DNA of 64,000 bases, from assembly GCF_964204645.1 (NCBI RefSeq), contig NC_134028.1:16561653-16625652 (forward strand). The letters run 5' to 3'. Under the pieces are notes generated by a model, which was not told the DNA's origin, did not search any database, and was given only the letters and a program-made list of their open reading frames with translations. The translations under genes were made by a program, and so were the position numbers. Positions 2,686 to 25,233 of this stretch are shown piece after piece (the first letter of the stretch is position 1; every line of letters starts with the position of its first letter). This DNA is from Tubulanus polymorphus (taxonomy: Eukaryota; Animalia; Nemertea).

Positions 2686-3147
2686 AGTAATAGGGAATAT
2701 GTTGTTTCATACCAAAGGTCGAAATGTCGAGCTCATAAAAAATGAAAAATATGAAAATAATAACAATTTCTATTTGAATTAGTAGCGAAACTCATATAAA
2801 ATGAAAAATAATTCTCGCACACTCGAATTTATTTTTCATTTTATATGAGTTTCACTCCTAATTCAAATAGAAATTATTATTATTTTCATATTTTTCATTT
2901 TTTACTCACTAGCCCTTTCAACCTTTGATATGAAACAAGATATTCCCTATTACTCTTAAAATATTCATATATATGAATAAAATATAAATTAATAACTTCT
3001 AAAATCAATTTTAATAAAAAATTTAGTATTAAAATGGAAGCAAATAAGTACTACTGTCCAACATGTAATATCAATATAGATAAATCCCAAAAATCAAGAC
3101 ACAATAAAACTAAAACACATTTAGAGAATAAATTGAAACTAGAATAT
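2686..3147 (+). repeat. Left TIR (462 bp) containing a 269-bp imperfect palindrome (2686-2954)
   Basis: Reverse complement of 21421-21882 with few mismatches; AGTAATAGGGAATAT at 2686 pairs with ATATTCCCTATTACT ending at 2954. Confidence 0.95.
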
Positions 3148-3261
3148 TTACAGTTATATTCAGAACAGTTAACAAAGGCAAAGAAATTTATTGAATTATG
3201 GAATAATGATCCAAATAATGAACAATACGTTGAGGAATTTGATATCAAGGATATGATTTAG
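3034..3261 (+). CDS. Chimeric 75-aa ORF: pPolB N-terminal Zn finger (inside the TIR) fused to a copy of the HNH-protein C-terminus
   Basis: First 38 aa are identical to ORF 21151-21534; the remainder (LQLY.EQLTKAKKFI..WNNDPNNEQYVE) duplicates 4064-4151. Confidence 0.65.
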   Translation: MEANKYYCPTCNINIDKSQKSRHNKTKTHLENKLKLEYLQLYSEQLTKAKKFIELWNNDPNNEQYVEEFDIKDMI

Positions 3262-3497
3262 ATATTTCATGTCGGTTGTTTCTATTTACATAATTATATA
3301 TAATTATGATTAGCGCATGCGCATTAAGCAAAACCGCGCATGAATGCGCGCTTTTGCCCAGTGGTATTATTTAGATATCAAGGAATCGAAACTGACTTAT
3401 CAAAAGCAGCGAGGAATGAAAAAGGATGACGTTGGTCGAAGAAATGGTAGAGGATTCTAAAATATTAACCAATTTAGTAAAAAAATACGTATAATAA

Positions 3498-4169
3498 ATG
3501 GAACCAGAACAACCACAAATCATCAATATTACAAATAACACTGCTGGTGTTATAAATATATACTACAAGAAGTGTTCTAAATGTGAATTAGATAAATTAG
3601 CTTTAACAGAATTTAGTAAGCGTAAGATTAGCAAAGATGGTTTTCAATATTGCTGTAAAACTTGTTTTAAACTATATACCAAACAATATCGAGAAGATAA
3701 TATAGAACATTATAATTATTATATGGCAGAATATATGAGAGAAAGATATCAAACAGATCTTAATTTTAGATTGAAACAATGTTTAAGATCTAGATTAACA
3801 CAATTATTCAACAAAGAAACACATTCAGAAACATTATCTAATTTGTTGGGTTGTTCGGATGAATTTTTCAAATCATGGATAATATATCAATTCGATGATA
3901 AAATGAATATAGATAATTATGGGGATTATTACCATATTGATTATGTGTTACCAATATCTAAATTTAACATGAATGATGAATACAATAAAAAACTAATTTG
4001 GAATTGGAAGAATTTAAGGCCTTTAGAAAAGAAGGAAAACATAATTAAATTTAATAAACTAGATTTACAGTTATATTTAGAACAGTTAACAAAGGCAAAG
4101 AAATTTATTGATCAATGGAACAATGATCCAAATAATGAACAATACGTTGAGTCTTTAATGAGTGGTTAA
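3498..4169 (+). CDS. Zn-ribbon plus HNH/endonuclease VII-like nuclease of the type common in large DNA viruses
   Basis: CSKC...DG...CKTC, LGCS..FF..WI..QF...MN..NYG.YYHIDYVLP...WNWKNLRPL...EN; the usual HIDH reads HIDY here. Confidence 0.7.
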   Translation: MEPEQPQIINITNNTAGVINIYYKKCSKCELDKLALTEFSKRKISKDGFQYCCKTCFKLYTKQYREDNIEHYNYYMAEYMRERYQTDLNFRLKQCLRSRLTQLFNKETHSETLSNLLGCSDEFFKSWIIYQFDDKMNIDNYGDYYHIDYVLPISKFNMNDEYNKKLIWNWKNLRPLEKKENIIKFNKLDLQLYLEQLTKAKKFIDQWNNDPNNEQYVESLMSG

Positions 4170-4393
4170 AGAATAATAGATTTTAAATAAAAAATATTAA
4201 AAAAACAATAACTTCAACTAGCTAGTGAATTCTACTATATTTTTAATATTTTCTTTTCAAAAAAGAATACTTTATATCACAAATAAAAAATACTAAAAAA
4301 ACAATAACTAATACTAAAATTCTTTAGCTTTAACTAGCTAGTATCATTTGAAGAATACTTATAATATTTTTCTTGCTTTTTTCTCTAATATAA

Positions 4394-5002
4394 ATGTCAA
4401 AGAAATCGAGTAAGAATAATATTGATATTGAAAAAACATTAGATGATTTGGGCATTAGTGATAATAAGGATATTCCGGCCAAAATTGAAAATAATATTCA
4501 AGTTAATTGTAATATAGATTATGAATACTATTTATATTGTAAACACCATCTTGAACTATTGATTGCTAGCGGGAAGTGTAAACAATTTTTAACTAAGACC
4601 ATTACTTTTCAAGAATTAGATGCTATGAAACAAGATGAAGTAATAAAATATTTTAAGATTTATGAAGAGTCAAGATTAGCTAGAATAAATGATTCTATTT
4701 CAGATGGTATTGTCAAATGTTATTCTAAGTTATGTAACCAGTTAATGCCAATTGATGATGAAAATAAATTATATAGTGATTTGAAAAGTGACTATTTAGT
4801 TATGACTGAATTACAAAAATGGGTTGGTTATGCTTCATTCCAATTAGGATCGGTTATGACATTAATTTCTACTGGCGTCATTACATTTTCGAACATCAAG
4901 CCTATGGAATATAAATCAGGTAAGAACGAAACAGATGTACTACAACCAAACAGTGAAACAGAAAATGAATCAGAACAAAAATTAACTAAAATAAATGAGT
5001 GA
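4394..5002 (+). CDS. Polinton hypothetical protein (202 aa) with a hydrophobic segment near the C-terminus
   Basis: Intact ORF with T6-N8-TAAATG start; overlaps the next gene; no motif recognised. Confidence 0.7.
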   Translation: MSKKSSKNNIDIEKTLDDLGISDNKDIPAKIENNIQVNCNIDYEYYLYCKHHLELLIASGKCKQFLTKTITFQELDAMKQDEVIKYFKIYEESRLARINDSISDGIVKCYSKLCNQLMPIDDENKLYSDLKSDYLVMTELQKWVGYASFQLGSVMTLISTGVITFSNIKPMEYKSGKNETDVLQPNSETENESEQKLTKINE

Positions 5003-5366
5003 TGGCGTTAAGAAAAAGGCTAGATCAGAGAAACAAATTAAATGGGCAAGAGAATTAGGTAAAAGATCTTCAGAATTAAAAAAAGCTAAGAAAAAGAAAT
5101 TAACTGGTATAAATGAATCACAGACTTTATCTGATATTAATTCAAATAATAATCCATCTAATTCTTCTAATCCTGGAAGTAATTATAAATTATATATTAC
5201 AATTGGATTAGTAACAGTTATTATATTATCCGGTGTAATATATAAATATAAGTATAAATCTGATTATAACAATAATGATTCCGATGACAATAAACCTATC
5301 ATACCAAATAAGTCAAATGATAAAGTCATTGAAAATAAGATTATAAGATTATTATTAATGGATTAA
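4995..5366 (+). CDS. Small basic protein with one predicted TM helix
   Basis: Basic N-terminus and LYITIGLVTVIILSGVIY; intact homolog at 27619-27984. Confidence 0.8.
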   Translation: MSDGVKKKARSEKQIKWARELGKRSSELKKAKKKKLTGINESQTLSDINSNNNPSNSSNPGSNYKLYITIGLVTVIILSGVIYKYKYKSDYNNNDSDDNKPIIPNKSNDKVIENKIIRLLLMD

Positions 5367-5611
5367 TTAAGATGAAAAAAGAACAGTATTTAAGAGATTT
5401 ATATTATAACCCAGAAAGTGAAGTATCATATTCTAACGTTTCAGAATTATGGAATAAAATTAAATCTGATAATGAAAATGGTAAAATAAAATATAGTGAA
5501 TTAAAATCATGGTTACAAAATCAACCAACATATCAAATCCATAAGAAAATGGATAAAAATTATTTAACAAGAAAAGTTATGGTTTCATATATCGATCAAC
5601 AATGGCAAGCA

Positions 5612-6980
5612 GATTTAATTGACATGCAGAACTTAGAAGAATACAACAAAGGATATTTCTGGATACTGAATGTTATAGACATATTCAGTCGATACGCATG
5701 GTCAATTCCAATCAAAAATAAAACTGGAATAGAAGTTACAAATGCTTTTAAATCTATATTTAAAGAAGCTATTCCAGATAAGATACAATTTGATGAAGGT
5801 AAGGAATTTTATAAGAAACATTTCAAAAAACTATTATCTGATAACGATGTAGATTATTTTTCAACACACTCAGATAAAAAAGCATCTATTATAGAAAGGT
5901 TTAATAAAACATTGAAAACTAGAATGTGGAAATATTTTACTGCTAATGAAACATATATTTATATCGATGAGTCTATAAATATATTAGATGATTTAGTGAA
6001 AGGTTATAATAATTCTAAACATTCAAGTATTGGTATAATCTTATTTTCAATGACTTTATCATTTGACTTATTTGGTATGATAGGTTTATTGTCATCGGAA
6101 TCATTATTGTTATAATCAGATTTATACTTATATTTATATATTACACCGGATAATATAATAACTGTTACTAATCCAATTGTAATATATAATTTATAATTAC
6201 TTCCAGGATTAGAAGAATTAGATGGATTATTATTTGAATTAATATCAGATAAAGTCCAAATTCTCCAAATTTAACTCTCGACTTCCAAATCTATTAATCG
6301 ATTTAATTGACATGAAGAACTTAGAAGAATACAACAAAGGATATTTCTGGATACTGAATGTTATAGACATATTTAGTCGATACGCATGGTCAATTCCAAT
6401 CAAAAATAAAACTGGAATAGAAGTTACAAATGCTTTTAAATCTATATTTAAAGAAGCTATTCCAGATAAGATACAATTTGATGAAGGTAAGGAATTTTAT
6501 AACAAACATTTCAAAAAACTATTATCTGATAACGATGTAGATTATTTTTCAACACACTCAGATAAAAAAGTATCTATTATAGAAAGGTTTAATAAAACAT
6601 TGAAAACTAGAATGTGAAAATATTTTACTGCTAATGAAACATATATTTATATCGATGAGTCTATAAATATATTAGATGATTTAGTGAAAGGTTATAATAA
6701 TTCTAAACATTCAAGTATTGGTATAATCTTATTTTCAATGACTATATCATTTGACTTATTTGGTATGATAGGTTTATTGTCATCGGAATCATTATTGTTA
6801 TAATCAGATTTATACTTATATTTATATATTACACCGGATAATATAATAACTGTTACTAATCAAATTGTAATATATAATTTATAATTACTTCCAGGATTAG
6901 AAGAATTAGATGGATTATTATTTGAATTAATATCAGATAAAGTCCAAATTCTCCAAATTTAACTCTCGACTTCCAAATCT
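5612..6980 (+). repeat. ~690-bp tandem duplication (5612-6292 and 6300-6980); each unit has integrase core, a 220-bp inverted copy of 5123-5345 and the first ~36 bp of the Penelope element
   Basis: Direct comparison: 6034-6256 and ~6722-6945 are the reverse complement of 5123-5345; ORF 6312-6617 repeats the integrase core. Confidence 0.9.
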
Positions 6981-8605
6981 TCCTTATGCTTATGGTCTTC
7001 CAAAAATTCATAAACCCAATTCACCGTTAAGACCGATCATTTCTAATATCAATTCTCCATCATATCGGCTCTCCAAATATCTGGCTAAAGTACTCTCCCC
7101 GGCTTTGGGTACTTTTTCTGATTCTCACATTCGTCACAATATGGATCTTTTAGACAAACTCAAAAATCTCAAACCTAATGGACAGAAATTTATATCTTTC
7201 GACGCTGTTTCCTTGTTCACTAATAAACCATTGGAACCAACTCTCAATTTCTTAAGAAGAAAACTCCCGGACTCCAATCTTGATCTCCCAATTCCTGTAG
7301 AATGTTTACTTGAACTTTTGGAACTCTGTACTACCAATTTATATTTCCGATTCCAAGACAAATTCTATGAACAAATTTTCGGTTTCGCTATGGGTAACCC
7401 ATTATCCCCGATTTTGGCTAATCTTTTCCTTGAACACTTTGAATCCGAAATTCTCCCTAAGTACGCTGGCTCTAAACCTAACTTTTGGATTAGATATGTT
7501 GATGACATTCTGAGCTTAGTTTCTGATAATTTTGATCTTTCCTCTTTTATCGACTTCATCAACTCCCAATATCCATCTTTGAAATTCACTTTTGAATGGG
7601 AACAAAATGACCAAATTCCGTTTTTAGATGTTCTAATTCACTATAAATTTTCTCATTTGATTTTCTCAGTCTACCGTAAACCGATCAACGCCGAGGCATA
7701 CCTTCACTTCTTTTCGTTTACTGCCAAATCAATCAAAATCGGTCTCGCTCAAGGCCTCTTTCTCCGTGCACTGCGGATCTGCGATGAAACCTTCCTTTCG
7801 GCTGAATTTGACCATATATCCAACTCTCTTAGAAAATCGGCTTACCCTGATCACATTTTGAAAATTGCCATTTCTAAGGCTAAACGTACTTTCTTCAATT
7901 CTAAACCTCCAGAAAATAAAAAACACATTTCAGAGTTCATTGTAGTTCCGTATGTACCTGTTTTGGAAAATTTTCGTCACTCTCTCCCTTTATTGGATAA
8001 ACAAATCATTTTCACGTATGAAAACAAAATTAGTAAGACTTTGGTTAAAAACAATCAATCTAAACCTTTGGACTGCGGAGTTTACAAAATTCCTTGTTTT
8101 GGCTGTGATGAAATTTACTTTGGAGAAACTGGTCGTGCTTTAAAAACTCGAATTTCGGAACACAAAAAGGATATGATAAATCAAAAACCGGCTAGTGGCG
8201 TAGCCAATCACGTTTGGAACACTGGTCATCGTTTTAATTTTGATAAAGCCGAAATTATTTATACTTCCAGCAATTACACTAAACGCCACATAGTTGAGTC
8301 TGCCCTAATTACTCGTCACTCAGATATTAGTACCAATTTAAATAATGGCTTTTCTCCGCATAATTCCTTTCTTTCTAAGTATATTACTTCATGCCTTGCC
8401 AAACACTAATTATTTACTCACTCACCAATTTGCTCAATTAACCTGTCCTCCTCTGTATATATACCCCTGTTTTAAGTCTATTTCTCACACCTGACGATGA
8501 TCTCTAGGGTGAGATCGAAACGTCGTGTCTTTTAAATATTTTAGATTTAATAAATAAATTCTTGTTTTTAAATTCTTTTAATCTGTAAATAGTGGGATTT
8601 TATCT
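6945..8605 (+). mobile_element. 5'-truncated Penelope-like retroelement (RT plus GIY-YIG endonuclease; ORF 7105-8409, frame open upstream)
   Basis: YGLPKIHK..PLRPIIS, SFDAVSLFT, GFAMGNPLSP, RYVDD, PFLDV, VYRKP; GVYKIPC..C...YFGETGR.L..RISEH; 3' pLTR region with hammerhead; TATTGGTAT duplicated at both sides. Confidence 0.95.
8486..8529 (+). ncRNA. Minimal type I hammerhead ribozyme in the Penelope 3' pLTR region
   Basis: CACAC-CTGACGA-T-GATCTC/TAGGGT/GAGATC-GAAAC-GTC^GTGT: core CUGANGA, stem II, GAAA, GUC cleavage triplet (cut after 8524), stem I ACAC/GTGT. Confidence 0.85.
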
Positions 8606-9045
8606 TATTGGTATGAAACCTATACAAGCTAGAAAAGAAGATAATTCGGAAATAGTTTGGAATAATTTATATGGTGTGTTTGTAACATATGATTTTGGAG
8701 AACCTAAATTCAAAATTGGACAACACGTTAGAATATCTAAATATAGAAAAACATTTTATAAAGGTTATACCCCTAATTTTACCGAAGAAATATTCAAGAT
8801 TAAAAAGACAATATTAACTAAACCATTTGTTTATAAATTAGAAGATCTAAAAGATGAAGAAATATTAGGTTATTTCTATGAACAAGAATTATCACTTGTA
8901 CCAAATCCAGATGAAATAGAATACAAAATAGAAAAAGTATTGAAAACAAAAACTCTTAAAGGAAAAAAGTATTCTTTGGTGAAATATAAAGGATACGATG
9001 ATAAATTTAATGAATGGATTTTATCTAGTAAAATTAAAAGAATAA

Positions 9046-9657
9046 ATGAATAAAGATTTATTAATATTTGAACCGCATAATATGTTAGTTACTGGTGTAA
9101 CCAATTGTGGTAAAACACATTTCATATTAGATTTGTTAGAAACTATTTATAAGAATCATTTTGATAATATAATATTATTTTGTCCTACTTATGAAATGAA
9201 TAAAACATATAATAGAGATATAGTTAAGATGAAAAAAGTTATTATATTAGATCCTAAAACAGTAAAAGAAAATTTAGATAATTGTATTAAAATAGCAATT
9301 GATACTTAATAAGGATCAAATACATTATTCATTATAGATGATTGCGCAAATTTACATGATTCAAAAGTGAGAGAAAGTGAGTTATGTTATTTAGCTTTCT
9401 CTGGGAGACATTTCGGGATAACAACATGGGTTTTAAATCAAAAATATAATTCAATTGTTAAAGACTTTAGGGAGAATATAAGATTTCTAGTTTTATTTTA
9501 TAACAAAGATAGAAAATCTATGCAACAATCATTGGAAGAAAATCAAATTATACCTACTGAATTACATGATGAATATATGAATAAATTAAAGAATAATAAA
9601 GGTTCAAAATTATTACTGAGACTACATTTTCCCTATGAATATAAGTTTATAAAATAA
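9046..9657 (+). pseudogene. A32/FtsK-HerA-like genome-packaging ATPase with an in-frame stop at 9307-9309
   Basis: Walker A VTGVTNCGKT, Walker B FIIDDCA, GRHFGIT...Q motif. Confidence 0.9.
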
Positions 9658-9676
9658 CTATTTATATATCTATGTA

Positions 9677-9770
9677 TTAGATACCCTATTAGATACCCTA
9701 ATACCTGATACCCTATTAGATACCCTAATACCTGATACCCTAATACCTGATACCCTATTCGATACCTTAA
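9677..9770 (+). repeat. Tandem GATACCCTA(ATACCT/TTA) array between convergent gene blocks
   Basis: About seven GATACC(C)T units; a related array (GTATCTAATAC)n sits at the equivalent position of the outer element (~25930-25975). Confidence 0.8.
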
Positions 9771-9947
9771 ATACTTAAAACCCCCTTTTTTATTTACTAT
9801 TATTTTATACAATTTTCAACCTTTATTATTATTTGAGTGTTAGATAATCAATTTCTGAATCACTTTCACTATCAGACCCCCCTAACAATTTATTCAAATT
9901 CTCTACCGTATCTTCTTCTAATTCTTTATTATTTTTATACTTATTCT

Positions 9948-10697
9948 TCACCTTTTTACCGAATCATCAATAGTTGTTTCATTGTTATGCTTATTCATCC
10001 AATCAAATTTATCTTTATTATCAATGCGCTTTCCTGTATTTTCATTATTATCTTTATTAGTGTTTGCTCCTAATATTTCATTTACAGTGTTTGATCCTAA
10101 TATTTCATTAGCATCGGTTAAATCTAATTCATCTTTATTAGGTGTTGCTAATAAAAAATCTTCATATAATTCTTTACCATTTACTTTTTTATTTGAAACA
10201 AATTTTGTAACATATCTAAATGGGTGTTCTATAAATTCTCTTAAACCAACACGATCTATTACATTAGTAATATGTGAATTTGTATTCATATGTTTATTCC
10301 AATTTGATGGAGCGTTTGAAAATTCACCTTTACAATAATCACAATAATTTCTATTTTCACTAACATTTAATATTATTGCATTATTATATGTAGAAGGTAT
10401 TACATTATTAGATGTAGAAGGTATTACATTATTAGATGTAGAAGGTATTACATTATTAGATGTAGTAGGTATTACATTATTAGATGTAGAAGGTATTACA
10501 TTATTATCAATTACATTACTTAAATTATCAACAACACTACTTTTATTATTATCGATTTCTATTAGTTTAGTTTTATAAATTTTGAAAATAGGATCAAATA
10601 TCAAAGCTATATTACAAGGTATTACATAATATAAACCATCATTATTTTCATGTGTATCGATGTATGGAATATGTTTTAATACTTCACCTCCTTCCAT
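9948..10697 (-). CDS. Polinton accessory protein with five 8-aa (NNVIPSTS) repeats and a C2H2/matrin-like Zn finger
   Basis: 24-bp tandem repeats at ~10381-10505; YCDYCK...WNKHMNTNSH. Confidence 0.75.
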   Translation of the reverse strand: MEGGEVLKHIPYIDTHENNDGLYYVIPCNIALIFDPIFKIYKTKLIEIDNNKSSVVDNLSNVIDNNVIPSTSNNVIPTTSNNVIPSTSNNVIPSTSNNVIPSTYNNAIILNVSENRNYCDYCKGEFSNAPSNWNKHMNTNSHITNVIDRVGLREFIEHPFRYVTKFVSNKKVNGKELYEDFLLATPNKDELDLTDANEILGSNTVNEILGANTNKDNNENTGKRIDNKDKFDWMNKHNNETTIDDSVKR

Positions 10698-10729
10698 TTA
10701 ATATAAGATTTTTTATTAAAGTTAAAATT

Positions 10730-11977
10730 TTAATACATAACACTATCTAATTGTGAATTTACAATATTTAATTGCGCGTCAGATATAATATAAATGTGCA
10801 TTTTGAAATTTAGACTTCCTTTTTTCTTTTTCATGAATAATTGTATTCCATCTTTAGTGTTCTGTAATTTTTTTCCAGAACCATGTAATGAATTATCCTC
10901 TGTTGTTCTAAAATCTAACCATAATGCATATTTATTACCGGTATAATAATCAATTTGATTAATATTACAATTTTCAGATGATTTTACTTTTTCATTCATA
11001 AAATGTTTTCTAATTTCTGGCCATTGATCTATCATTCTCATTCCTTGACAAAATATTTTATTTTCTATTCCTTTGATAGTTATTTCTACTTTTGTTATTT
11101 CAGGATTATAATACTTATCGACCTGTATTGCGCCATTAGAATATGTTGCAATGGTAAGAAATATTAATATACCTTTAATAGATCTTCTTGGGAAGTTAAT
11201 ATTCTCATTAATAATTTCATCATTTGCATTAATAGTTACGGTTTTAAATTTATCAATATAATCATATAATAATGAAAATCCTTGATTGTATTGAGTTTGA
11301 ATTATGCTTGAAATATTTTCATTAGTTACTGTGTCATATTCTAAACATATATTCGATAATTTATAACTCAAATCTTTAACAACGCTAGATAATACAATTT
11401 CATTTACAGGAGCAAAAGTTATTTCGAATATAACGTCTTCTTGAATTGCGTATTTATATAAAGGTGCATTATTATTTATCAATTCAAAGTCTAATGGAAT
11501 TTTATATTTGCTTCCATAAATCTTTTTTATCAAATTATCTGCGGTACGAGTTACTATTGCGTCATTAGCTCCTGATCTTAATTTATTATGGTTTTCCGAT
11601 TGAATGCCCTGAAATATCATATTATTTCTATTTTCTTTAGTTAACCATAAATCTTTATAATGCATAAATAAATTATAATCATCTAATGAGAAAACTGTTT
11701 CTGGACCAATCTTTATTGTTAACTTTTTAATCAAATATCTTCCAACATTATCAACAACATAATTGTTATCATGGCCAGTTACTTTTATATCAGCTGATAA
11801 ATAAATACTATTTGGAACATAAAAAGTATTTTGTGTTAATCTCGGATTTCTAACATATAAAGTTTCATCAGGATTAATATTAGAAGGGTTATGAGTAATT
11901 ATATGATGTGATCTTTCTGCTTTAATAGCATTAGATATTCTATGATTCTTAGAAGGATTGATATAACTCCCACTCAT
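10730..11977 (-). CDS. Putative major capsid protein (double jelly-roll expected), intact 415 aa
   Basis: Size, beta-rich composition (LIKKLTIKIG, YKIPLDF, VIFEITFAP, YKLSNICLEYD, FPRRSIKGILIF, YALWLDF), strong conservation with the outer copy and Polinton context; fold assignment is inferred, not computed. Confidence 0.72.
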   Translation of the reverse strand: MSGSYINPSKNHRISNAIKAERSHHIITHNPSNINPDETLYVRNPRLTQNTFYVPNSIYLSADIKVTGHDNNYVVDNVGRYLIKKLTIKIGPETVFSLDDYNLFMHYKDLWLTKENRNNMIFQGIQSENHNKLRSGANDAIVTRTADNLIKKIYGSKYKIPLDFELINNNAPLYKYAIQEDVIFEITFAPVNEIVLSSVVKDLSYKLSNICLEYDTVTNENISSIIQTQYNQGFSLLYDYIDKFKTVTINANDEIINENINFPRRSIKGILIFLTIATYSNGAIQVDKYYNPEITKVEITIKGIENKIFCQGMRMIDQWPEIRKHFMNEKVKSSENCNINQIDYYTGNKYALWLDFRTTEDNSLHGSGKKLQNTKDGIQLFMKKKKGSLNFKMHIYIISDAQLNIVNSQLDSVMY

Positions 11978-15768: not shown

Positions 15769-15990
15769 TTATATGGGAGGAATAAATTTTTGTTTTTCCA
15801 AATAATCAATAGTTAAATTAGATAAAGTAACTGCTAAAGTTAATTTTAAAATATCATTTATATCAAATCTATCAACATTAACACTTCCCATTTTGAATAC
15901 TTTTTTTAATACCATTGAATAACCAACAGTTCCAATTGATAGTAATGCACCATTATATAATCCAGTTATTATCCACTTATTATCACTCAT
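15769..15990 (-). CDS. Small hydrophobic protein (73 aa)
   Basis: IITGLYNGALLSIGTVGYSMVL; T7-N6-TAAATG start. Confidence 0.7.
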   Translation of the reverse strand: MSDNKWIITGLYNGALLSIGTVGYSMVLKKVFKMGSVNVDRFDINDILKLTLAVTLSNLTIDYLEKQKFIPPI

Positions 15991-16347
15991 TTATTTATCA
16001 AAAAAATTACTATCTTCAAAATATTTAGTTATCTTATTTATAATTATTTCAACATTTATTTCATTACTAGTTTCATTTGTATATATTTCAATTATTATTT
16101 TTTTAATATCATCGATGATAAAATCTTCATCTAATTCATAAAATCTTAAAGATTCTCTAATTAAATTAGTAATCTTTTCTACATTTAAAGTTTCTTTATC
16201 TATTGTTGTTTCATACTCAAATGTTGTTTCATTAGAAAATACAATATTTTTGATTTGTGTAATTACATCATTAATGTCAAATTTCATTTCTTTCTCATGT
16301 TTAAAATCAAACCCAAAACATATACTCGGTCCAACAGTTATATTCAT
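15991..16347 (-). CDS. Small acidic hypothetical protein (118 aa)
   Basis: Intact ORF tiling the gene block; T6-N8-TAAATG start. Confidence 0.65.
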   Translation of the reverse strand: MNITVGPSICFGFDFKHEKEMKFDINDVITQIKNIVFSNETTFEYETTIDKETLNVEKITNLIRESLRFYELDEDFIIDDIKKIIIEIYTNETSNEINVEIIINKITKYFEDSNFFDK

Positions 16348-16364
16348 TTATATAGTGGAAAAAA

Positions 16365-17120: not shown

Positions 17121-17137
17121 TTATTTTACATATTTTC

Positions 17138-17491
17138 TTATTCGAAATCTATTTCATGATGCCCCTTTTCATTCTTACCTTTGTATACGAAATAGAAATC
17201 ACCAGAACATAATTCTTCTAGGTCTTCACTTGATAATCTATGAAATCTATCTGGTAAATATGTTCTGAATTTATATGTATTTCCTTTTAATCCTTCATAT
17301 TCTAAGTGTATAACTAATTTATCTACATATTTGTTAGTAATTGTATCAATATTTGTAATAAGATATTTCTTATGGATTATTAATTCTTTTAACTTCTTAA
17401 ATTTATAATCTACTGATTTGACATTTGAAGTATCTTTGATTCTATCTAGAAATGATTTGTTGTTCTCACTGTGTGTTTGTTTACTCTCCAT
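17138..17491 (-). CDS. Small Polinton-associated protein next to polB (possible OB-fold)
   Basis: FKKLKEL...KY.IT...TNKY..KLVIHLE...TYLPDRF...FVYKG; fold is inferred only. Confidence 0.6.
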   Translation of the reverse strand: MESKQTHSENNKSFLDRIKDTSNVKSVDYKFKKLKELIIHKKYLITNIDTITNKYVDKLVIHLEYEGLKGNTYKFRTYLPDRFHRLSSEDLEELCSGDFYFVYKGKNEKGHHEIDFE

Positions 17492-17520
17492 TTATAATAC
17501 ATATTTTTACTAAAATTTGA

Positions 17521-20500
17521 TTAACACGTTAGAATTCTTTTCATTATCTCGTTCTCTTTTGTTTCTTCTCTTTTAGATTTTAAGTATTCATCTAAATTAC
17601 AACCATAAGCAACTGTATGAATTCCATCATCTAAAATATATCTTTTATCATCAAATGGGTTTAGACTTACCTTTTCAATTTCTTCAATAAACATTTCATG
17701 ATCTTCATATCTTAAACATCTCATCTTATGTTTTCTAACTTCTTCATTGAATATACAATTGATGTAATCTTTGAAATGAATATTCTTTTCTACTACACTT
17801 TTGGTTATTCCTTTTAACTTTTTAGCTTCATGTTCTTTAGTTTTATATGAATACATTTTAGATCTAATACCTATGAATTCAATCATTTCTTCACCACCTA
17901 ATTCATCTTTGAATTTACCGGGAACTTTTTTATTATCATTGCTAAAAAATTCATGATTTTTAGGATAATTACTGAAATCAAAATGATGTTTTAATGTTTT
18001 TAAATCATCAGTTATGTTATCAGTTTTTATCTTTAATATGTAACTGTCGGTATCAAAATATAATATTTCTATATGTTTTTCTCCAAAAAGTGGTTGTAAT
18101 ACATTATAATAGAATTCATACATTAGTAATTTTGATAATTCTAAAACTGAAGCGCCAACATAGATTGGTTTATTAAATTTCATTGATGTTCTTCTCATTT
18201 TAACTGCAGCTAAATTTTCATCAAATATTCTGTTACCAATGAACTTAGGATATGTTTGTAAATGTCTAATTCTTTTACCATTACTGACTAACTCAATATC
18301 ATTTCTATTTCTAATATTTTCACAAGTCTTGCCATAGAATGCATTATTCATTAACTTGAAGAAATCTTTTTCGAAATCAGTTTTAGCTTTAGTTCTCTGT
18401 TTGGTGTTAAAATCTATATATTTTTCTAACCACTTAGATTGGCTGAATGAAATATATCTACGTACTTTTTTTAGAATCATTCCTTGTTTTAGATAAAACT
18501 TTAACATTCTGTAATGTACTACATAATTATATTTATCTTCTTGAGTTACCATTAACTTTTCTGTATGAATATGATTTTCGGGTTTAATTTTTTTTTGGTA
18601 ATTTGATAATTCTTCATGAGTTACAGTTTTATGTTCTTGACAGTAAGCTAGATTTCTTGATTTAAATTTTTTATCTTCAGGATATTCTAAATCTACATCA
18701 AAGAAGTAACCAGTATCTGAATCATCTGCAATATCTAGAATTCTTTTCTTCCAATCAAATTTATCATTATTTTCATTCTGTAAAACTTCAGTTAATTCAA
18801 ATACTCCATAAGGTTGTGGTTCCATCATTGCCCAACCATACAAATTATTTGCATCTATATATAATAACTTATATCCGGGGTTATCATTTACATTGAAATA
18901 TCTATCACCTAATACACCTGAAACTCCTCCTCTTATAGATTTTTCAAATAATAGTAATTGATCTATATTTGTTAACAAATCCATTTTTATATCTGTAAAT
19001 TTCAATCCACGATCCCATGTTAAACCTGGTGATGAATAACAATGGCAAGGATCAATGTTAAAATATTTTAGGTTTACATCTCTAAACCTTTCGAATATAT
19101 CGGTTAATAATAATACATCAGATTTTAAATATATATATATATACTAATTGCCCATGATTTTCTATTTTGAAATGATTCCAAATATTCAATGTTCTATTAT
19201 ATACTTCATCTTTAACATATTCATTTTTTAATTCATCATAAAATTGTTCTTTTAATAATTCAGTTATATTGAAATCATTATGTGATTTATAAAATGAATA
19301 TGGAATTGCTCCTTTATATCTCATTAATTGAAAATCATCATTATTTGGATGGTGTTGTTTTAATATTTTTAATTCTTCATCAACTAATGATTTTGATAAG
19401 TTATCTAATGAACTACCTAGAAACCTATATGAATCTATAAATCTTAGACACCCAAATTGGAAAGATATATAATTCTCAGATGTTTTAGCTAACATTCTAA
19501 ATTTATAAGTTGGTATTTTAGCAACATCTTTTGATCTATATGAATTTAATCTTTCTATTTCATTATTAATTTCTTCTATCTTATGGCACAGTTGCTTGAT
19601 GAATAAATGTGCATCATATCCTGATAGATTATGAAATATAACTGGTACAAAATTAATTTTCTTAGCTTGTAAGTTACAATTCTCATGTGCAGCGCCTCTA
19701 AACTTTCCATTCAAATGATCATGGTCTCTTACTTTTTTATCTTTATAATTAAATATCTTTTCACAATAATAACATTTATCTGCAAACGCAAATTCTTTAT
19801 TTGTATTCAATAATTTACTAAATCTTATTTCATATTCAATTAATAAGTCACAAAAATGATTGATAACATTTTCATTTCTATAATGATAATATTCACTTTC
19901 AATTAGTTCTGGATAATCAGATTTAATATATAACCCGAAAGCTGCAGCTGATTGATGAATCTTTTTAATAGTATTTGTTTTTGGTGGTTCATCTGAAAAA
20001 TCATTTTCATTAGAATTTAATTTCTTTCTTTTATAATATATTTCTTTTCTATCTTGATCAGTTAATTCTTTATTTAATGATTCAAAATCTCCATATATAA
20101 CAAATGGTACTTTATTTTTGTAATCATATTTTTTGAATTCTAATATTTTATCCTTTTCATTTGGTAAAACTAATTTACAATAATCATGATTTTCACATAA
20201 TTGTTTATGATTTAATAATGCACTCTCATTACTGAATTTATGTAAACATTTTCTACATAGATATATTTTACGAGCATAATCATTTTCTGATTTAAAAAAT
20301 AAATCAATTTGTTTAATCCACATATAATGATTTTCATAATATAGTATATCTATAACATCGTTTGAATCATAATCATTTGATAGGTATAAAGGTTCTAATG
20401 TATAATGTTTTATATTGTTACCTTTTGTTTTTGGTAATTTGATTAAATCGAATACATTTATCTTTATATTATTATCTCTTTCTATTTTTGGGATATTTTT

Positions 20501-21534
20501 AATTCTAACAGGATACTTATCTATCTTATAATTATTTTCAAATGGTTTATAATGAGTTAATCTAAAACTATGTGTAATATCTTCTGTTGGATGTAAACAA
20601 CTTATTATAGCCCATAGAAAACATTTATCATCAAAATTTTGTACATTTATAACAGCATTAGTTTTAAATGGTAGTTTAATATAACTCGATGCTTCAATAT
20701 CTGGTTCTTTATAATATGATACATTATTTTCATCAATTGGTTTCGATTTAGTTAACTTATTATATTTTGTGTTATAAACATGTCAAGTCATAAATATTAT
20801 TTCATCAAATATTAGACCAGATCCTTCAAAATATTTCTCTTCTATTTTAGTTTTTACTTCATTATAACATTTATCTAATTTATCATCTATATGTTGTTTT
20901 GAAATAATATGTTGTGAATGAGAATTTATATTATATATTGGTTTATCTTCAGATTTTATGAATTTAACTTTAACTGATATACTAATTTTAGGATATTCAA
21001 CATCAGTTATTATTTTTATTATTTCTTTCATATTTTCTAAATGTTTTTTATTTTCTTCTAATGTTTTTCCTTTATGAAATTTAAACTCGATAGCTGCTGG
21101 ACCAATATCACTTTTAAATGCTTCGGTTATCTCTATATCTTTTTTATTATCTAATGAATTAATATAATTTCTTCCATGTACGGTCTTTTATTGTTTAATT
21201 TATTTCTTATTCTTTTAATTGTCTTGTGTTTCTTATCATTATCTTTATCAATATGATCTTCACCTAAAATATCATTATTCTTATTTCTAGTATGACTTTT
21301 AGATTTTAAATGTTCATTATAATATCTTTTATCACTGAATGATTGATTACATGTATCACATTTGTATGTTTCTTTTTCATTCTTTAATTCATCTAATTTA
21401 GTTTCTAATATATCATCTTCATATTCTAATTTTAATTTATTCTCTAAATGTGTTTTAGTTTTATTGTGTCTTGATTTTTGGGATTTATCTATATTGATAT
21501 TACATGTTGGGCAGTAGTACTTATTTGCTTCCAT
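17521..21534 (-). pseudogene. polB: Protein-primed family B DNA polymerase with N-terminal Zn fingers and an inserted endonuclease VII-like Zn domain; several frameshifts
   Basis: ExoI VIYGDFES, ExoII FHNLSGYDAH, Pol A YIDANNLYGWAM, Pol B KLMNNAFYGK, Pol C YFDTDS; CYYC...VRDHDHLNGKFRGAAHENCN; split over four ORFs. Confidence 0.95.
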
Positions 21535-21882
21535 TTTAATGCTAAATTTTTTATTAAAATTGATTTTAGAAGTTATTCATTTATATTTTATTCATATATA
21601 TGAATATTTCAAGAGTAATAGGGAATATCTTGTTTCATATCAAAGGTTGAAAGGGCTAGTGAGTAAAAAATGAAAAATATGAAAATAATAATAATTTCTA
21701 TTTGAATTAGGAGTGAAACTCATATAAAATGAAAAATAAATTCGAGTGTGCGAGAATTATTTTTCATTTTATATGAGTTTCGCTACTAATTCAAATAGAA
21801 ATTGTTATTATTTTCATATTTTTCATTTTTTATGAGCTCGACCTTTCGACCTTTGGTATGAAACAACATATTCCCTATTACT
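21421..21882 (-). repeat. Right TIR (462 bp) with a 269-bp palindrome (21614-21882); includes the polB start
   Basis: Reverse complement of 2686-3147. Confidence 0.95.
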
Positions 21883-22742
21883 AATATGACACAGTAACTG
21901 ATGAAAATATCTGAAGCATAATTCAAACCCAATATCATCAATTTAAAATTGTAACTATTAATGCAAATGATGAAATAATCAATGAGAATAGTAACTTCCC
22001 AAGAAGATCTATTAAAGGCGTATTAATATTTTTTACAATTGCAACATATTCTAATGGCGCAATAAATGTTGATAACTATTATAATCCTGAAATATCAAAA
22101 GTAGAAATAACATGTTACACGCGGGTCAAAGACAAATCCTCAGATGTGGAGTAAACGTCCAAGCTAACAAGAAACTGCCAACAACGGCTATAAAACAGCG
22201 CGACACTTTAATAGCTCCAAGAACGGCCTAGGTCTGACTGACTAATACAAGCCCGGCAGTGGTATATATATGAGCAGGCATTAAGGAGGCGCAAATTGTG
22301 ACAGCTGGATTAAACCAGTGAACCACTGCTGGAAATGCAAGTCAGCCAGGCAGTACAATACAACTCTTACAATATAATACCAGGTAACAAACAATTGAAG
22401 GTATAGCAAATAAAATATTTTGCCAGGGAATGAGAATGATTAATCAGTGGGTAGAAATTAGAAAAAATTTTATGAATTAAAAAATAAAGTCATCTGAAGA
22501 TTGTAATATAAACCAAATTGATTATTATACCGGTAATAAATATGCGTTATGGTTAGATTTTAGAACAACAGAGGATAACTTATTACATGGTTCTGGGAAA
22601 AAACTACAGAACACTAAAGATGGAATACAATTATTCATGAAAAAGAAAAAAAGGAATCAAAAATTTCAAAATGCACATTTATCTTATATCTGACGCGCAA
22701 ATAAATATTATAAATTCTCAATTACACAGTGTTATGTATTAA
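21883..22742 (+). pseudogene. Outer Polinton major capsid gene, 3' part
   Basis: Continues EYDTVTDENI from the TSD through FPRRSIKG, YALWLDFRTTEDN and HGSGKKLQNTKDG to VMY*. Confidence 0.88.
22113..22389. mobile_element. Solo LTR (277 bp) with 4-bp TSD
   Basis: TGTTAC...GTAACA ends, AACA at 22109-22112 and 22390-22393; removing it restores capsid codons VEITIEG. Confidence 0.85.
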
Positions 22743-22774
22743 AATTTTAATTTTAATAAAAAAATTTATAATAA

Positions 22775-25233
22775 ATGGAAGGAGGAATATATGAAATACA
22801 AAGTCCAAGTGAAATGATATCAGATATATATTATGTAATACCTTATGATGAATATAGTAAGTATTTTGGAGAATGCTTTAATCAATTCAAATATAGAATA
22901 AGTAAAATAGAAGATAATATTGAATTTAAAATAGAAGATAATATTGAATCTAAAATAGAAGATAATGTTATACCTTCTACATCGAATAATGATAATTATA
23001 ATACGAAGATTGAACCTGATATCAAAAACCAAAAAGACAAATGAAAAATATTGTGACGTATGTAAGAAATATATATCATATAAAAATTGGGCAACTCATC
23101 TTAATTCAATCAAGCATGATAAAAATAAGAATAAGAATATGAAATATAGCTGCAAGCAGCGATAACGGGTTTCTGCCTTTCTGGATAGAATGTCGTTGAG
23201 GGATGCGAGCAAAGATTTCACGCGAAATCAGTTCGTTACATTCCGTTTTTTGAAAGAGTGCCACCTAGGGGTCAACTCACAACATGGATATGTTGACCCA
23301 CATGTGCTACTACGCGCATGTGCTACTACGCGCGAAGTACTAATGTGCCAGGTTTTGGGGGGGGGGGGTGGATAACATCGAGAAGACCGAAGCTACGGTG
23401 TTTTCAGCATTCCCTAGTGACAGTTTAAGCGCATATTCGGTTATTATTAGTTCCGAAAAAAGTTGACTAGATAAGAAAACCGAATTTTGCCCAAAGCACA
23501 AATTTGGCCTATAGGGTAAATTTTGCAGGAGGGAAGGCCTTATAGTGTTACTATTAGTAGAGGAGTGACAAGTCAGTCGGACAAGGCAAGCGATCAGATG
23601 GGGACTACAATTCACATATGAAATTGACGTCCAATAACCATTATAAAAACAAAATCACGAACGGTACCATCATTCCCCATTACTCACTGTCACTGGTTGC
23701 TGGCTGGCCTGCAATTATTCTTTATCGGTGCAGTGGGTAGGTATTTTCAACTGACTTAGTTCTTTTATGACATCACCAACGCCGCTGCGTCACGATGTGA
23801 TGTACATGTACAAGGGACCTCCAATTTGTGATGTATGTGATGTATAAACTGACTTTAGACCGTTTAATATCGACGATAACAAGGTATCACCGACGCTGAC
23901 ATTTTCTGACGTTAATTAGTATGACCCGCCTTTTGGACCGGACCAATTCAATTCAAATAAGAAAACGCGTACCGGTACAGTAAATAAATAAACCGCTGTT
24001 GATTTTTCGAAGTATTGATATCCACGAACCCAGACTATACTATTATAGAATGTTTAAAAGGAACTGCTTTTAATAACAGTATGAATAAACTTACTTCACA
24101 AACAAGGAAGTACATTTTTAACTTGTGAATGGTCGAACCCAGTTATTCACAGTAACCTGGGATTTGGATGACCTCGGATCCTTCCTTCTTTATTTATTTA
24201 TGAAATGACGTCACAAACTTTCAGATTCGCGCAAGTATGCGCGCCATGATTGATGATTGCTATTTCCACCGGTGTTATCTTTAAGTAACTTCAAGTTTAA
24301 AATAGGAAGCACAGTTCATCCATAGAAACTACGCGCAGAAAGTTGTTAGTAGTCAAATCTAATAGAAGATGATTTTTATGTGACGAAACTCAGTGGAAAA
24401 TATGTAAAAATAACAATCAGCAGGAATCCAATAGGGTTCCTGCTGAGTTAGCAGAAACCCTAATGAATTGAATAATAATAGTGAAGTTGATAATGATAAA
24501 ACTGAAGAAGATATTAATAATGATAAATATTGTGAGGAATTTGATAAATATATAAGTCGTAGTAATTTTCAAAACATAAATTAACCCAAATACATTTGGA
24601 TAACGTAGAAAGAAATATATGTGAAAAGTGTAATGTTGTTGTATTAACTAAAGATAAAATTAAACATTATAATTCTATTGAACATACAATAAAAGCTATT
24701 GATCCAAAACACATTTATAGAGTACCATGGGTATTTTTTTATATCGAAAATAATAATAATAGGAAATTTATATAGATCAATTTTCATCGATTTTGTAAGA
24801 AATAATCCAAATGTAGTATTATCAGATGTGAAAAATAGTTGGAAAAATATAGATAAATATCCAGGTGATTGTCCAGGGATACCTTATTTCTTCAAATTTA
24901 AAAGGAGAGATTTTCTAACAGAATTGAAAAAAATTGCTGCTAATGATGATAAAAGTGATAACTTTGATGAAATAATTCAATATTACAGTTATGAAGATTT
25001 TTCACAAGATTTTATTAATAGGATTAAAAATGATGAAAAAAATAAATATAAAAATATATGTGAAGATCAATTAAATCAATATATCTATTTAAATTATGAA
25101 TTGTTTGCTAAAGGTTTGAGGGCTAGCGATATTATCATACCAAACAATTAGGTGAAGTTGAAGGCAATAGAAGATCAGAAGAATTAAGAGATGCATGGCA
25201 ATAATTGTGGTTAGAATTAGAATCAGAAAAGTA
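22775..25233 (+). pseudogene. Outer Polinton Zn-finger accessory gene (positional homolog of 9948-10697) interrupted by a HINE
   Basis: MEGG start, NVIPSTSNN, YCDVCKK...HLNSIKH; Polinton-like AT-rich coding resumes after 24464 (ORF 24699-25151). Confidence 0.65.
23143..24464 (-). mobile_element. Non-autonomous Helentron (HINE-like) element
   Basis: On the - strand it starts ATTAGGGTTTCTGC...GCAGGAACCCTATTG (hairpin) and ends GCTGCTTGCAGCTATATT; 24120-24220 resembles the reverse complement of 28275-28370 in the large Helentron. Confidence 0.75.

Follow-up and report, generated by a model that had tools for sequence, protein, structure and literature searches.

An inner Polinton-like element and other copies in the window

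The window, the whole 64,000-nt stretch of DNA that was analyzed, holds a Polinton-like element that is capsid-encoding and may be described as a virus-like transposon, and the DNA surrounding it is likely an animal genome.

2687..21881, no strand: inner Polinton-like element, 19.2 kb (TIRs, target duplication, Pfam)

The inner element is AT-rich (~25% GC; 0.248). Its TIRs (2681-3147 and 21421-21887; 467 nt, 98% alike) have termini that read GTAATAGGG..., and a 6-7 bp target duplication, read as AATATGA at the flanks, surrounds it. Pfam matches in the inner element included rve, Chromo and Pox_A32, and Pfam together with PHROGs identified pPolB, rve plus chromo, an A32-like ATPase, HNH and Zn fingers among the element ORFs; an RNA polymerase gene was not found on these ORFs with either collection. 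The HNH gene matched phrog_1035, endonuclease VII (2.1e-11), the model of the MCP (pLDDT 85.8) matched the double jelly-roll MCPs of SGIV, PBCV-1 and mavirus, and the best match of the penton model was the mavirus penton (E = 3.6e-9). Hydrophobic or membrane-like features were seen in o14850 (462 aa, with a C-terminal hydrophobic segment), o15744 (two hydrophobic segments) and o15301 (a membrane-like protein); homologues of o14850 and of o15744 each gave 27 ORF matches among 80 loci. The inner element is decayed, with polB in at least four ORFs, an interrupted integrase and a truncated ATPase. The element is integrated in a nuclear genome in a very high number of copies, and genomic reads cover it at very high depth.

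Two further copies were recognized. An outer copy is interrupted by the inner element, which was inserted into the outer copy's MCP gene; the Zn-finger genes that start at 10697 and 22775 are paralogous (arms 10687-10831 and 22641-22785, 89%). In a third, distinct copy, polB starts at 61738 (plus strand), ~65 nt inside an intact terminus that resembles the inner TIR end, and shares 40-59% amino acid identity with the inner polB pieces.

Two motif classes at gene starts

Nearly all element genes begin at TAAATG with a T-run or an A-run core upstream, and the intergenic spacers of 15-25 nt carry one motif per gene. The pattern TAATTTTTT-N3-9-TAAATG matched eight times in the window; 100 dinucleotide shuffles gave 0.07 matches on average and never more than one. 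The matches lie at the ATGs at 11977 (MCP), 13448, 14850, 15301, 15744, 15990 and 16347 (all minus strand) and at 61738 (plus strand). In this T class, 6-8 T in a compact run after TAA form the core, the spacer is 5-7 bp in six of the eight strict instances, and AATAAA lies inside five of them. The predicted T-class promoters are as follows.

1630..1652, plus: outer-copy MCP (T5), TAATTTTTCTCTTAAAATAAATG at start 1650
4376..4396, plus: o4394, looser, in the form CTTTTTTCTCTAATATAAATG
11975..11996, minus: MCP (10730-11977) (pattern match; MCP fold model)
13446..13464, minus: o13448 (pattern match)
14848..14869, minus: o14850 (pattern match)
15299..15321, minus: o15301 (pattern match)
15742..15763, minus: o15744 (pattern match)
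15988..16009, minus: o15990 (pattern match), inside the last o16347 codons here
16345..16367, minus: o16347 (pattern match)
61719..61740, plus: third-copy polB (pattern match)

The A-class pattern, TTTARTAAAAA-N8-14-TAAATG, matched four times in the window (0.00 expected), at 3498, 10697, 17491 and 22775, and the consensus of the core is TTTTA[A/G]TAAAAA. The main polB (21534, minus strand) carries TTTTAATAAAAAATTTAGCATTAAAATG with TAAAATG as its initiator. Weaker, A-like forms lie upstream of the penton gene (17120), o4995 (4995) and the ATPase (9046); a clear motif was not found upstream of either the integrase or the ATPase. Predicted A-class promoters and related motifs are as follows.

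3009..3036, plus: twin of the polB promoter in the other TIR, at the head of a chimeric ORF of 75 aa (3034); not an independent instance
3473..3500, plus: HNH/endonuclease VII gene (3498-4169) (pattern match)
4975..4997, plus: A-like motif of o4995, within the 3'-terminal part of o4394
10695..10720, minus: Zn-finger/repeat gene (9948-10697) (pattern match)
17118..17142, minus: penton gene (16365-17120), degenerate and A-like (motif read; penton fold)
17489..17514, minus: o17491 (pattern match)
21532..21559, minus: polB, inside the right TIR; initiator TAAAATG
22752..22777, plus: outer-copy Zn-finger gene, paralogue of 10697 (pattern match)

Because the instance at 3034 twins that at 21534 and the gene at 22775 is a paralogue of 10697, the independent strict A-class promoters number four rather than six. 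The motif strings quoted in a preliminary description of this DNA were all present at the ORF starts to which they had been assigned, and the two exceptions that it named, an A-like motif at the penton (minor capsid) gene at 17120 and a T-run at the third polB (61738), were found as described.

All T and A matches adjoined ORF starts within element copies, and none occurred in the remaining ~35 kb of the window. When the inner element was combined with 18 related contigs, T-run plus TAAATG stood at 41, and A-run plus TAAATG at 25, of 3,341 ATGs; the ORF-start set held 32 T-run and 20 A-run TAAATG sites (2 and 1, respectively, outside the span of the null). An excess of T over A or of A over T of at least 5 at positions -20 to -9 was found at 36 of 70 distinct TAAATG gene starts versus 22 of 136 internal TAAATG sites, and the variance of T minus A over these positions was 23.6 and 9.9, respectively. 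The T-versus-A content upstream of genes is thus strongly bimodal, with few intermediates. Both classes nonetheless share a skeleton of A at -18/-17 and T at -12 followed by TAAATG (A at -18 in 50 and T at -12 in 60 of the 70 gene starts), and the spacing to TAAATG is mostly 5-7 bases from the T-run and 7-9 bases from the A-run core. TAAATG alone is barely enriched in the element (50 occurrences versus 39 ± 6 expected under a first-order Markov model); therefore, specificity lies in the upstream run and its spacing. Together, these results confirm two discrete motif classes, both well in excess of chance and nearly restricted to gene starts.

Conservation and switching of motif class among relatives

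Both motifs were found again at gene starts in the 18 related metagenome contigs; the relatives in which they recur have 50-77% MCP identity. The T-run form was kept at MCP and at most conserved genes of the virion module, and the A-run form was kept at the Zn-finger gene. MCP was T-class in L001 to L005, L009, L010 and L013, and the Zn-finger gene was A-class in L003, L004 and L005, as in the window. The window and L001 shared a T-class motif at MCP, o13448 (which forms, with o13078, a single 485-aa ORF in L001), o14850, o15301, o15744, o15990 and o4394; o4394 was T-class in L003 and L004 also, and o4995 was A-class in the window, L001 and L003. The preliminary description had asked whether class tracks gene identity across relatives, and lack of conservation by gene would count against its reading. 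Among cross-lineage pairs, 47 were concordant and 31 discordant, a difference of 16 compared to -0.9 ± 6.3 when labels were shuffled within lineages (P = 0.018, a value that owes most to MCP pairs and is inflated by common ancestry). Class therefore tracked the gene above chance but imperfectly, and since five families (penton, polB, HNH, o17491 and o16347) switch class between lineages, such a lack of conservation was partly seen. The penton gene was strictly A-class in L001, A-like in the window and T-class in L009 and L062; the polB of the main copy was A-class and that of the third copy T-class; o16347 was T-class in the window with an A-class orthologue in L001, and o17491 showed the reverse. 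In L038, a single T-type form headed nearly all genes, and in the divergent gene pairs of L010 and L013, one common A/T tract had its T side 9 nt from the MCP ATG and its A side 13 nt from the partner ATG.

These data bear on the earlier proposal that the classes separate structural from nonstructural genes. The T-run on MCP and the virion block fits it, but the penton, a structural protein confirmed by its fold, is A-class or A-like in the two nearest lineages, the deoxynucleoside kinase of L001 (PF01712, 1.7e-31) is T-class and five families switch, so a clean separation of structural and nonstructural genes by motif class is not supported as stated. The linked prediction, that o4394, o14850, o15744 and o15990 belong to a virion or morphogenesis module, is reasonable, since these genes stay linked with MCP and ATPase even at 35% MCP identity. 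TAAATG is absent from GC-rich relatives (MCP ~35% identical), which indicates that the code is specific to a lineage, and base composition may account for part of it. In IMG/VR, a search with the T motif gave isolated matches only (at most 4 per 4-6 kb locus); at five loci, T matches did not head ORFs as a rule, and a run of at least 5 T preceded TAAATG at 3 of 28 ORF starts. Among genomic copies, 4 of the 41 variable places listed fell within the 58 motif and spacer positions of the three promoters at 15742-16367, compared to 3.4 expected, and three of these four were in spacers; these promoters are no less variable than their surroundings.

Comparison with known systems

The poxvirus comparison made in the preliminary description held well for late promoters, whose geometry of core, spacer and TAAATG is matched here, and loosely for intermediate promoters. 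In the published description of late promoters, a spacer of 5-7 bp separates a T-rich core from TAAAT(G/A), which lies at the start site (PMC5294985). Vaccinia late promoters resemble the T class in these respects, with the ATG of TAAATG as the start codon, one promoter per gene and tiny intergenic gaps; however, their T-rich region is ~20 bp, compared to 6-8 T in a compact run after TAA here, the element carries neither RNA polymerase nor late factors, and its start site and any poly(A) leader are putative. Intermediate promoters are described as an AT-rich core at -26 to -13, a spacer and TAAA at -1 to +3 that is read by the polymerase itself (PMC12917281). They share the bipartite arrangement of A/T-rich core, spacer and TAAA initiator, but the spacer in vaccinia is ~12 bp rather than 7-9 bp, and the core is characterized as lacking a consensus, whereas TTTTA[A/G]TAAAAA is found here. 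The A-run form is equally comparable to the A-rich poxvirus early core, AAAANTGAAAA, as given in PMC5294985.

Among virophages and polinton-like viruses, PgVV is reported to carry the early motif AAAATTGA of its giant virus, and mavirus and Sputnik the late motif of the helper (10.1101/2022.07.28.501842). These are likewise small, capsid-encoding elements without a polymerase, with one short motif before each gene, and their replication and virion genes can bear different motifs. The motifs here are instead based on TAAATG, not TCTA or AAAATTGA, and, unlike virophages, the element apparently resides in an animal genome with no known helper, has an rve integrase and reaches very high copy number. 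The yeast cytoplasmic linear virus-like elements (pGKL), described as having a TAAAN initiator and 5' poly(A) leaders from polymerase slippage (PMC6211774), are also pPolB/TIR elements with an upstream element and initiator at each gene, but they possess genes for an RNA polymerase and a capping enzyme, neither of which is in the element here, and have no capsid genes. Polinton-like viruses in entomopoxvirus occlusion bodies have been proposed to be poxvirus parasites (PMC11296320); they are similarly animal-associated, and, on our reading, a poxvirus would supply TAAAT-reading transcription. Compared by description only, they differ in being ~12 kb and highly diverged and in having an adenovirus-type protease, and the words "promoter," "motif" and "TAAAT" do not occur in the text of that paper.

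Possible readers of the motifs

We considered the possibility that host RNA polymerase II reads the element without any helper virus, the A/T tracts being TATA-like or nucleosome-excluding, TAAATG being a preferred AT-rich start context and the two forms differing in strength or orientation rather than timing. The element is, indeed, integrated in nuclear DNA, where it has TIRs and a 6-7 bp target duplication, encodes an rve-chromo integrase and is covered at very high depth by genomic reads; TAAATG enrichment is weak overall, and GC-rich relatives manage without it. A title cited in a poxvirus review (PMC5294985) reportedly has TBP targeting vaccinia intermediate and late promoter elements. 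Nevertheless, RNA polymerase II starts 25-30 bp from a TATA box, and the cores, ~11-17 bp upstream of TAAATG, are too near for a TATA-directed start before the ATG, so that the start would be within the ORF. Yet homologous ORFs begin at the same ATG, which an in-frame TAA precedes, the G3 residue of MCP does not vary in 48 sequences, and 15-25 nt spacers with one motif for each gene are unlike known polymerase II units. We regard this explanation as unlikely.

Quite improbable, in our estimate, is a single promoter type that needs an A/T tract at a more or less constant distance from TAAATG and functions whichever way the tract is oriented, with T or A neutral and flipping freely. The common skeleton, the divergent pairs served by one tract, the five families that flip and the nearly uniform T-type form of L038 would all suit such a promoter, but the strongly bimodal upstream composition, the additional conserved TTTA[A/G]T of the A form with 12-13 rather than 9 nt to the ATG, and the constancy of T at MCP and A at the Zn-finger gene in all close lineages argue against it. 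It is highly doubtful that the T-run mainly marks the 3' end of the gene before it, as a terminator or a polyadenylation element, and is fused to a restart signal, which would make the T class a mark of junctions in a tandem block and not a late promoter. Within the block from 16347 to 13448, the T-run does lie within a few bases of the previous stop codon, TAA or TAG is often within TAATTTTTT and AATAAA is in five of eight strict motifs; however, MCP has the T motif in the divergent pairs too, where there is no co-oriented upstream gene, as does the third-copy polB, directly after the element terminus, and at 15990 the run sits in upstream coding sequence. A trans-splice acceptor was ruled out, because no AG follows the run.

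The reading that we put forward, at about even confidence, is that the T-run and A-run motifs are per-gene promoters of two separately regulated sets, predicted to be read at TAAATG by a polymerase encoded outside the element. Transcription would start at or beside TAAATG and give monocistronic, almost leaderless messages, as for poxvirus postreplicative genes. The reader may be a polymerase of viral type that a large DNA virus provides in trans as helper, in a virophage-like lifestyle; the position of the cores ~11-17 bp from TAAATG and the lack of an RNA polymerase gene make a helper polymerase likelier than canonical host RNA polymerase II. PgVV, with the early motif of its giant virus, and the polinton-like viruses of entomopoxvirus occlusion bodies serve as precedents for promoters that a helper reads. 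No helper is known, and nuclear integration at very high copy number, as in an autonomous nuclear transposon, counts against a helper. The classes might differ in timing or in factor requirement, the A form resembling early or intermediate promoters and the T form late ones, although the five switching families weaken the case for a fixed temporal program. Rather, single genes (penton, polB, HNH, o17491 and o16347) appear to have exchanged one class for the other in evolution, and such swaps would mean that class reflects regulation and not the role of the protein.

Two classes of promoter-like motif at ORF starts

Upstream regions were extracted for 30 ORFs of the window, which are named here by their start positions (o4394 and so on). 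The T form, TAATTTTTT-N3-9-TAAATG, was matched eight times (0.07 expected), and all eight matches adjoined ORF starts, namely, those of the major capsid protein (MCP) gene, o13448, o14850, o15301, o15744, o15990, o16347, and a third copy of polB. The A form, TTTARTAAAAA-N8-14-TAAATG, was matched four times (0.00 expected), at the HNH gene, at o17491, and at two Zn-finger paralogues; in polB, the A-form core is followed by TAAAATG. TAAATG by itself was not unusual (50 occurrences versus 39 +/- 6). The A-class instances cited in the preliminary description do carry the motif, but two of them are copies of others: the one at 3034 is the twin of 21534 in the opposite terminal inverted repeat (TIR), and the one at 22775 belongs to the outer-copy paralogue of the gene at 10697. 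The 75-aa ORF at 3034-3261 is chimeric, combining on its 5' side the TIR copy of polB's 5' end with, on its 3' side, a duplicate of the HNH gene's 3' end (3129-3234 = 4046-4151, 89%).

Variation among genomic copies was assessed over 15700-16400 from raw DNA reads, counting differences present in at least 20% of reads. At least 41 variable places were found. Of the 41 listed places, four lay within three T promoters, at the 58 positions that make up their motifs and spacers, compared to 3.4 expected (one in a T-run and three in spacers). There was no excess conservation of the motifs among the places listed, a result that weighs neither for nor against a promoter role.

Structure, copies, and gene content of the element

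The motifs belong largely to an inner Polinton-like element at 2687-21881, which is 19.2 kb long and has a GC content of 0.248, compared to 0.32-0.44 in its flanks. Its TIRs are 467 nt long and 98% complementary, and its junctions are clean, with termini GTAATAGGG... and (A)ATATGA duplicated on both sides; it therefore has the TIRs and the short (6-bp) target-site duplication of Polintons/Mavericks. The target of the insertion was the MCP gene of a second copy in the opposite orientation. In this self-nested insertion within one family (junctions at 2679-2695 and 21873-21892), the MCP gene of the inner copy itself, at 11240-11350, offers an exact empty-site comparison. The copies, the integrase domains, and the neighboring mobile elements are as follows.

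1081-2686, 21937-23044, and 25998-27989: pieces of the outer (second) copy
From near 61654: third, distinct copy, with a terminus similar to that of the inner element
5372-6115: rve integrase (PF00665, 4.1e-9)
8613-9053: Chromo domain of the integrase (Chromo, 3e-5)
33100-37050: Helitron-type ORFs outside the element (Helitron_like_N, 6.1e-27; PIF1 helicase, 2.1e-7)
48843-51430: LTR-retrotransposon gag/protease ORFs

The polB gene of the third copy is 40-59% identical to the inner polB pieces; the possibility that this gene is a truncation artefact was rejected on the basis of its intact terminus, which resembles the inner TIR end. ORFs in the surrounding DNA encode Helitron_like_N/PIF1, gag-protease/zinc-knuckle, and RVT_1 domains; together with a reverse-transcriptase ORF inside the integrase gene, they point to a eukaryotic and probably animal host. 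A long imperfect tandem array at 30525-31313, just beyond the element cluster, codes on one strand for MNENHE/MNQNYE-type repeats. Upstream of o4995 in the outer copy (27985-28030, minus strand; ORF 27619-27984), the sequence is unlike that of the inner copy and includes an inverted repeat, rich in GC and hairpin-like (GGGTTTTC...GAAAACCC), immediately before TAATAAATG.

The inner copy is decayed, with polB split into at least four ORFs and an ATPase of 87 aa, compared to 204 aa in relatives; o13448 and o13078 correspond to a single 485-aa ORF in L001, a metagenome locus encoding an MCP homologue. In raw genomic reads from a run labeled as the same species (1.9 Gb), the depth over the element was in the hundreds and most of the reads covering it were 90-99% alike, which indicates that the family is very abundant in that genome. 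A run presumed to be of RNA gave no records for the element.

The gene content likewise includes the polymerase, integrase, and capsid set of a Polinton/Maverick. The family-B polymerase motifs LYGWAM, NNAFYGK, and YFDTDSY were read from the sequence in ORFs 17521-18984 and 19118-20323; the window pieces gave no Pfam polymerase match, and the homologue in metagenome locus L018 (1061 aa, 41% identical) matched DNA_pol_B_2 at 4.6e-16, so the motifs together with that homologue identify the family-B polymerase. The integrase is of the retroviral (rve) type; both a retroelement and a 688-bp tandem duplication (5612-5911 = 6300-6599, 99%) break up its gene. The retroelement is represented by a reverse-transcriptase ORF (RVT_1) at 7141-8409, whose C terminus has a GIY-YIG-like motif of the Penelope-like kind; genomic-read joints 6022->8612 and 6710->8612 indicate that other copies lack this insert. 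The capsid set consists of an MCP with the double jelly-roll fold (its model, with a pLDDT of 85.8, was closest to the MCPs of SGIV, PBCV-1, and mavirus, with E values down to 1e-16), a penton (pLDDT, 64.8; best match, mavirus penton, E = 3.6e-9), and an A32-like packaging ATPase (Pox_A32, 1e-5). Against PDB sequences, the MCP profile gave a chance-level match only (E = 0.12), and the ESM Atlas gave no usable match for o14850. An HNH/endonuclease VII gene and Zn fingers are also encoded. The Zn-finger gene at 9948-10697 contains six 24-nt tandem repeats coding for units of the NVIPSTSN type (10350-10530), and the length of the protein is very variable, from 89 to 431 aa across the outer-copy paralogue (22775-23044) and the homologues in loci L003 to L005. 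Among 25 ORFs searched at E <= 0.01 (Pfam) or against PHROGs, none matched any protease family, including the adenovirus-type cysteine protease of Polintons, with several ORFs of unassigned family, and no RNA polymerase gene was recognized among the element ORFs by Pfam or PHROGs.

Relatives of the element and a conserved gene order

There were 923 MCP homologues at E <= 0.001, some of them in Mb-scale assemblies, and the sole organism-named one was from a bivalve. A metagenome scan with the MCP alignment yielded 148 confirmed encoding stretches, and the 80 loci kept spanned identities of 29-75% and GC contents of 20-60%; IMG/VR yielded no relatives of the MCP, either with the single protein or with the alignment. 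In the 80 loci, 1142 ORFs of at least 50 aa were called, and blastp was used to assign them to window proteins. The commonest hits were to MCP (84), ATPase (47), o4394 (32), o15744 (27), o14850 (27), and o15990 (23), and distant relatives kept the order MCP-ATPase-o4394-x-o15990-o15744. Conservation of this order favors membership of the unannotated T-class ORFs in a conserved morphogenetic module.

Conservation of the motifs and of motif class

The motifs were surveyed in 18 AT-rich loci (MCP at least 43% identical) and the window copies, which together gave 126 non-overlapping ORFs. A T-run (at least five T's, 5-12 nt before the ATG) with TAAATG preceded 32 of the 126 ORF starts, an A-run (at least five A's, 9-15 nt before the ATG) with TAAATG preceded 20, TAAATG alone was present at 21, and none of these motifs was present at 53. 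Since the T and A composites occurred 41 and 25 times when all ATGs of the inner element and the 18 loci (3341 in total) were counted, about three-quarters of the composite motifs head ORFs. Across 70 distinct gene starts with TAAATG, the T-minus-A count in positions -20 to -9 was bimodal, with one mode near +5 and the other near -5; its absolute value was 5 or more at 36 of these starts, compared to 22 of 136 internal TAAATG sites. Both classes share an A at -18 (50/70) and a T at -12 (60/70) and differ mainly at -16 to -13, with TTTA[A/G]T additionally upstream in the A class. In loci L010 and L013, the two genes of a divergent pair share one A/T tract, which is 9 nt away from the start of MCP and 13 nt away from that of the partner. 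On these results, the motifs are genuine and conserved, fall into two classes, and resemble promoters.

Outside the AT-rich set, locus L038 (37% MCP identity, 34% GC) has GATTTT-N-TAAATG ahead of nearly all of its genes, and the GC-rich relatives lack TAAATG. In five of the latter with about 35% MCP identity (L027, L043, L044, L049, and L065), a conserved word, CAGCTATCTAAAACGTG, lies 10-20 nt upstream of the MCP start. The different upstream word suggests a separate promoter code for each lineage.

The preliminary description had proposed that the two classes separate structural from non-structural genes in a temporal cascade. Several assignments were stable: the T class for MCP (window, outer copy, and loci L001 to L005, L009, L010, and L013), for o4394 (four of the five lineages classed), and for o14850, o15301, o15744, o15990, and o13448 (window and L001), and the A class for the Zn-finger gene (window, outer copy, L003, and L004/L005) and o4995 (window, L001, and L003). 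Five gene families switched class. The penton gene is A-like in the window, strictly A in L001, and T in L009 and L062; polB is A in the inner copy and T in the third copy; HNH is A in the window and T in L004; o17491 is A in the window and T in L001; and o16347 is T in the window and A in L001. After exclusion of near-duplicates (L005, L012, and L056), outer-copy and fragment ORFs, internal polB pieces, and singletons, 47 class-by-gene pairs were concordant and 31 were discordant (P = 0.018 with labels shuffled within lineages, a value dominated by MCP and uncorrected for shared descent). Class thus tracks gene identity in homologous elements above chance, but only in part. The proposed split and cascade hold as a fair first approximation and are contradicted by the penton gene, the third polB, a kinase gene, and the class switches. 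The kinase is a deoxynucleoside kinase (PF01712, 1.7e-31) encoded at 10340-10981 on the minus strand of L001, the closest long relative (75% MCP identity, 19.6% GC); it has a T-class promoter and no counterpart in the window element. Large cytoplasmic DNA viruses typically carry genes for nucleotide salvage.

How the motifs may be read

Poxvirus late promoters consist of a T-rich core and a spacer of 5-7 bp, with TAAAT(G/A) where transcription begins (PMC5294985). All eight strict T-class sites end in TAAATG at the ORF start, so that the initiator overlies the start codon, and the spacers between T-run and TAAATG are 6, 3, 7, 6, 6, 6, 8, and 5 bp, six of the eight falling within the 5-7 bp range; however, the T core here is 6-8 T's, shorter than the approximately 20 bp described for late promoters. 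Late transcription in poxviruses is carried out by a viral multisubunit RNA polymerase with late factors; it begins within TAAAT and yields a 5' poly(A) leader. Intermediate promoters have an AT-rich core at -26 to -13 followed, after a spacer of some 12 bp, by TAAA at -1 to +3, which the polymerase reads directly (PMC12917281). TAAA is present in the A class, but with an A-run spacer of 7-9 bp and a core at about -23 to -11, so the likeness to intermediate promoters that the preliminary description had drawn is a resemblance and not a match. On this comparison, the motif geometry appears to fit that of published poxvirus post-replicative promoters. Yeast linear virus-like elements share pPolB and TIRs with the inner element and also have a TAAAN initiator, with poly(A) leaders on their messages, but they encode their own polymerase and the inner element does not (PMC6211774).

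Other explanations of the motifs were weighed. A T-run could serve as a trans-splice acceptor, but no AG follows the run, and this was rejected. An A-class motif could be the reverse side of a neighbor's T-run, but the window A-class genes have no divergent neighbor, and this explanation was rejected as well. A canonical TATA-directed Pol II start, judged by its usual geometry, fits poorly because the distance from the motif cores to TAAATG is just 11-17 bp and that ATG is where the ORFs of homologues start. Since the element lacks a polymerase gene, we favor a reading in which the motifs would be recognized by a virus-type polymerase acting in trans. This has precedents: virophages and PgVV carry the promoter motifs of their helper (10.1101/2022.07.28.501842), and entomopoxvirus occlusion bodies have yielded Polinton-like viruses (PMC11296320); the latter source makes no mention of promoters.

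Dependence of the virophage type would entail promoter motifs identical to those of a co-infecting giant virus and replication in its presence only. As a search for such a helper, IMG/VR was scanned for AATTTTTTNNNWAAATAAATG, which gave at least 120 stretches, 80 of which were analyzed. Each of the 80 loci had a single strict match and at most four relaxed T-type sites, and some of the matches were on giant-virus MAG contigs. In loci L090, L101, L140, L120, and L143, the motifs did not head ORFs as a rule; 3 of 28 ORF starts had at least five T's before TAAATG, two of them in L140 and one in L120. No helper candidate was found among the IMG/VR matches listed.

Implications for Polinton biology

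Polintons/Mavericks have been regarded variously as autonomous viruses, as transposons, or as satellites of larger viruses, and we know of no established mode of gene expression for those of animals. In the papers listed by searches of open-licence full texts and preprints, neither "polinton" nor "virophage" was linked to TAAAT promoters. The point of interest is a poxvirus-like architecture, open to testing, in a polymerase-less animal Polinton family. This family amounts to hundreds of read-depth equivalents in a single genome, and many metagenomes contain relatives of it. A speculative and, in our judgment, rather unlikely reading is that this high-copy family, with core-spacer-TAAATG promoters of poxvirus style at each gene, represents metazoan provirophages awaiting an undiscovered cytoplasmic pox- or asfar-like virus of marine invertebrates, with the two classes reporting the intermediate/early and late codes of that virus, or else that TAAAT-initiator transcription is ancestral to Polintons, yeast linear elements, and poxviruses. 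The motifs can be used to search for the putative helper virus and to place unannotated ORFs in co-regulated sets. Moreover, the conserved two-class TAAATG code makes the question of Polinton expression and lifestyle directly testable.
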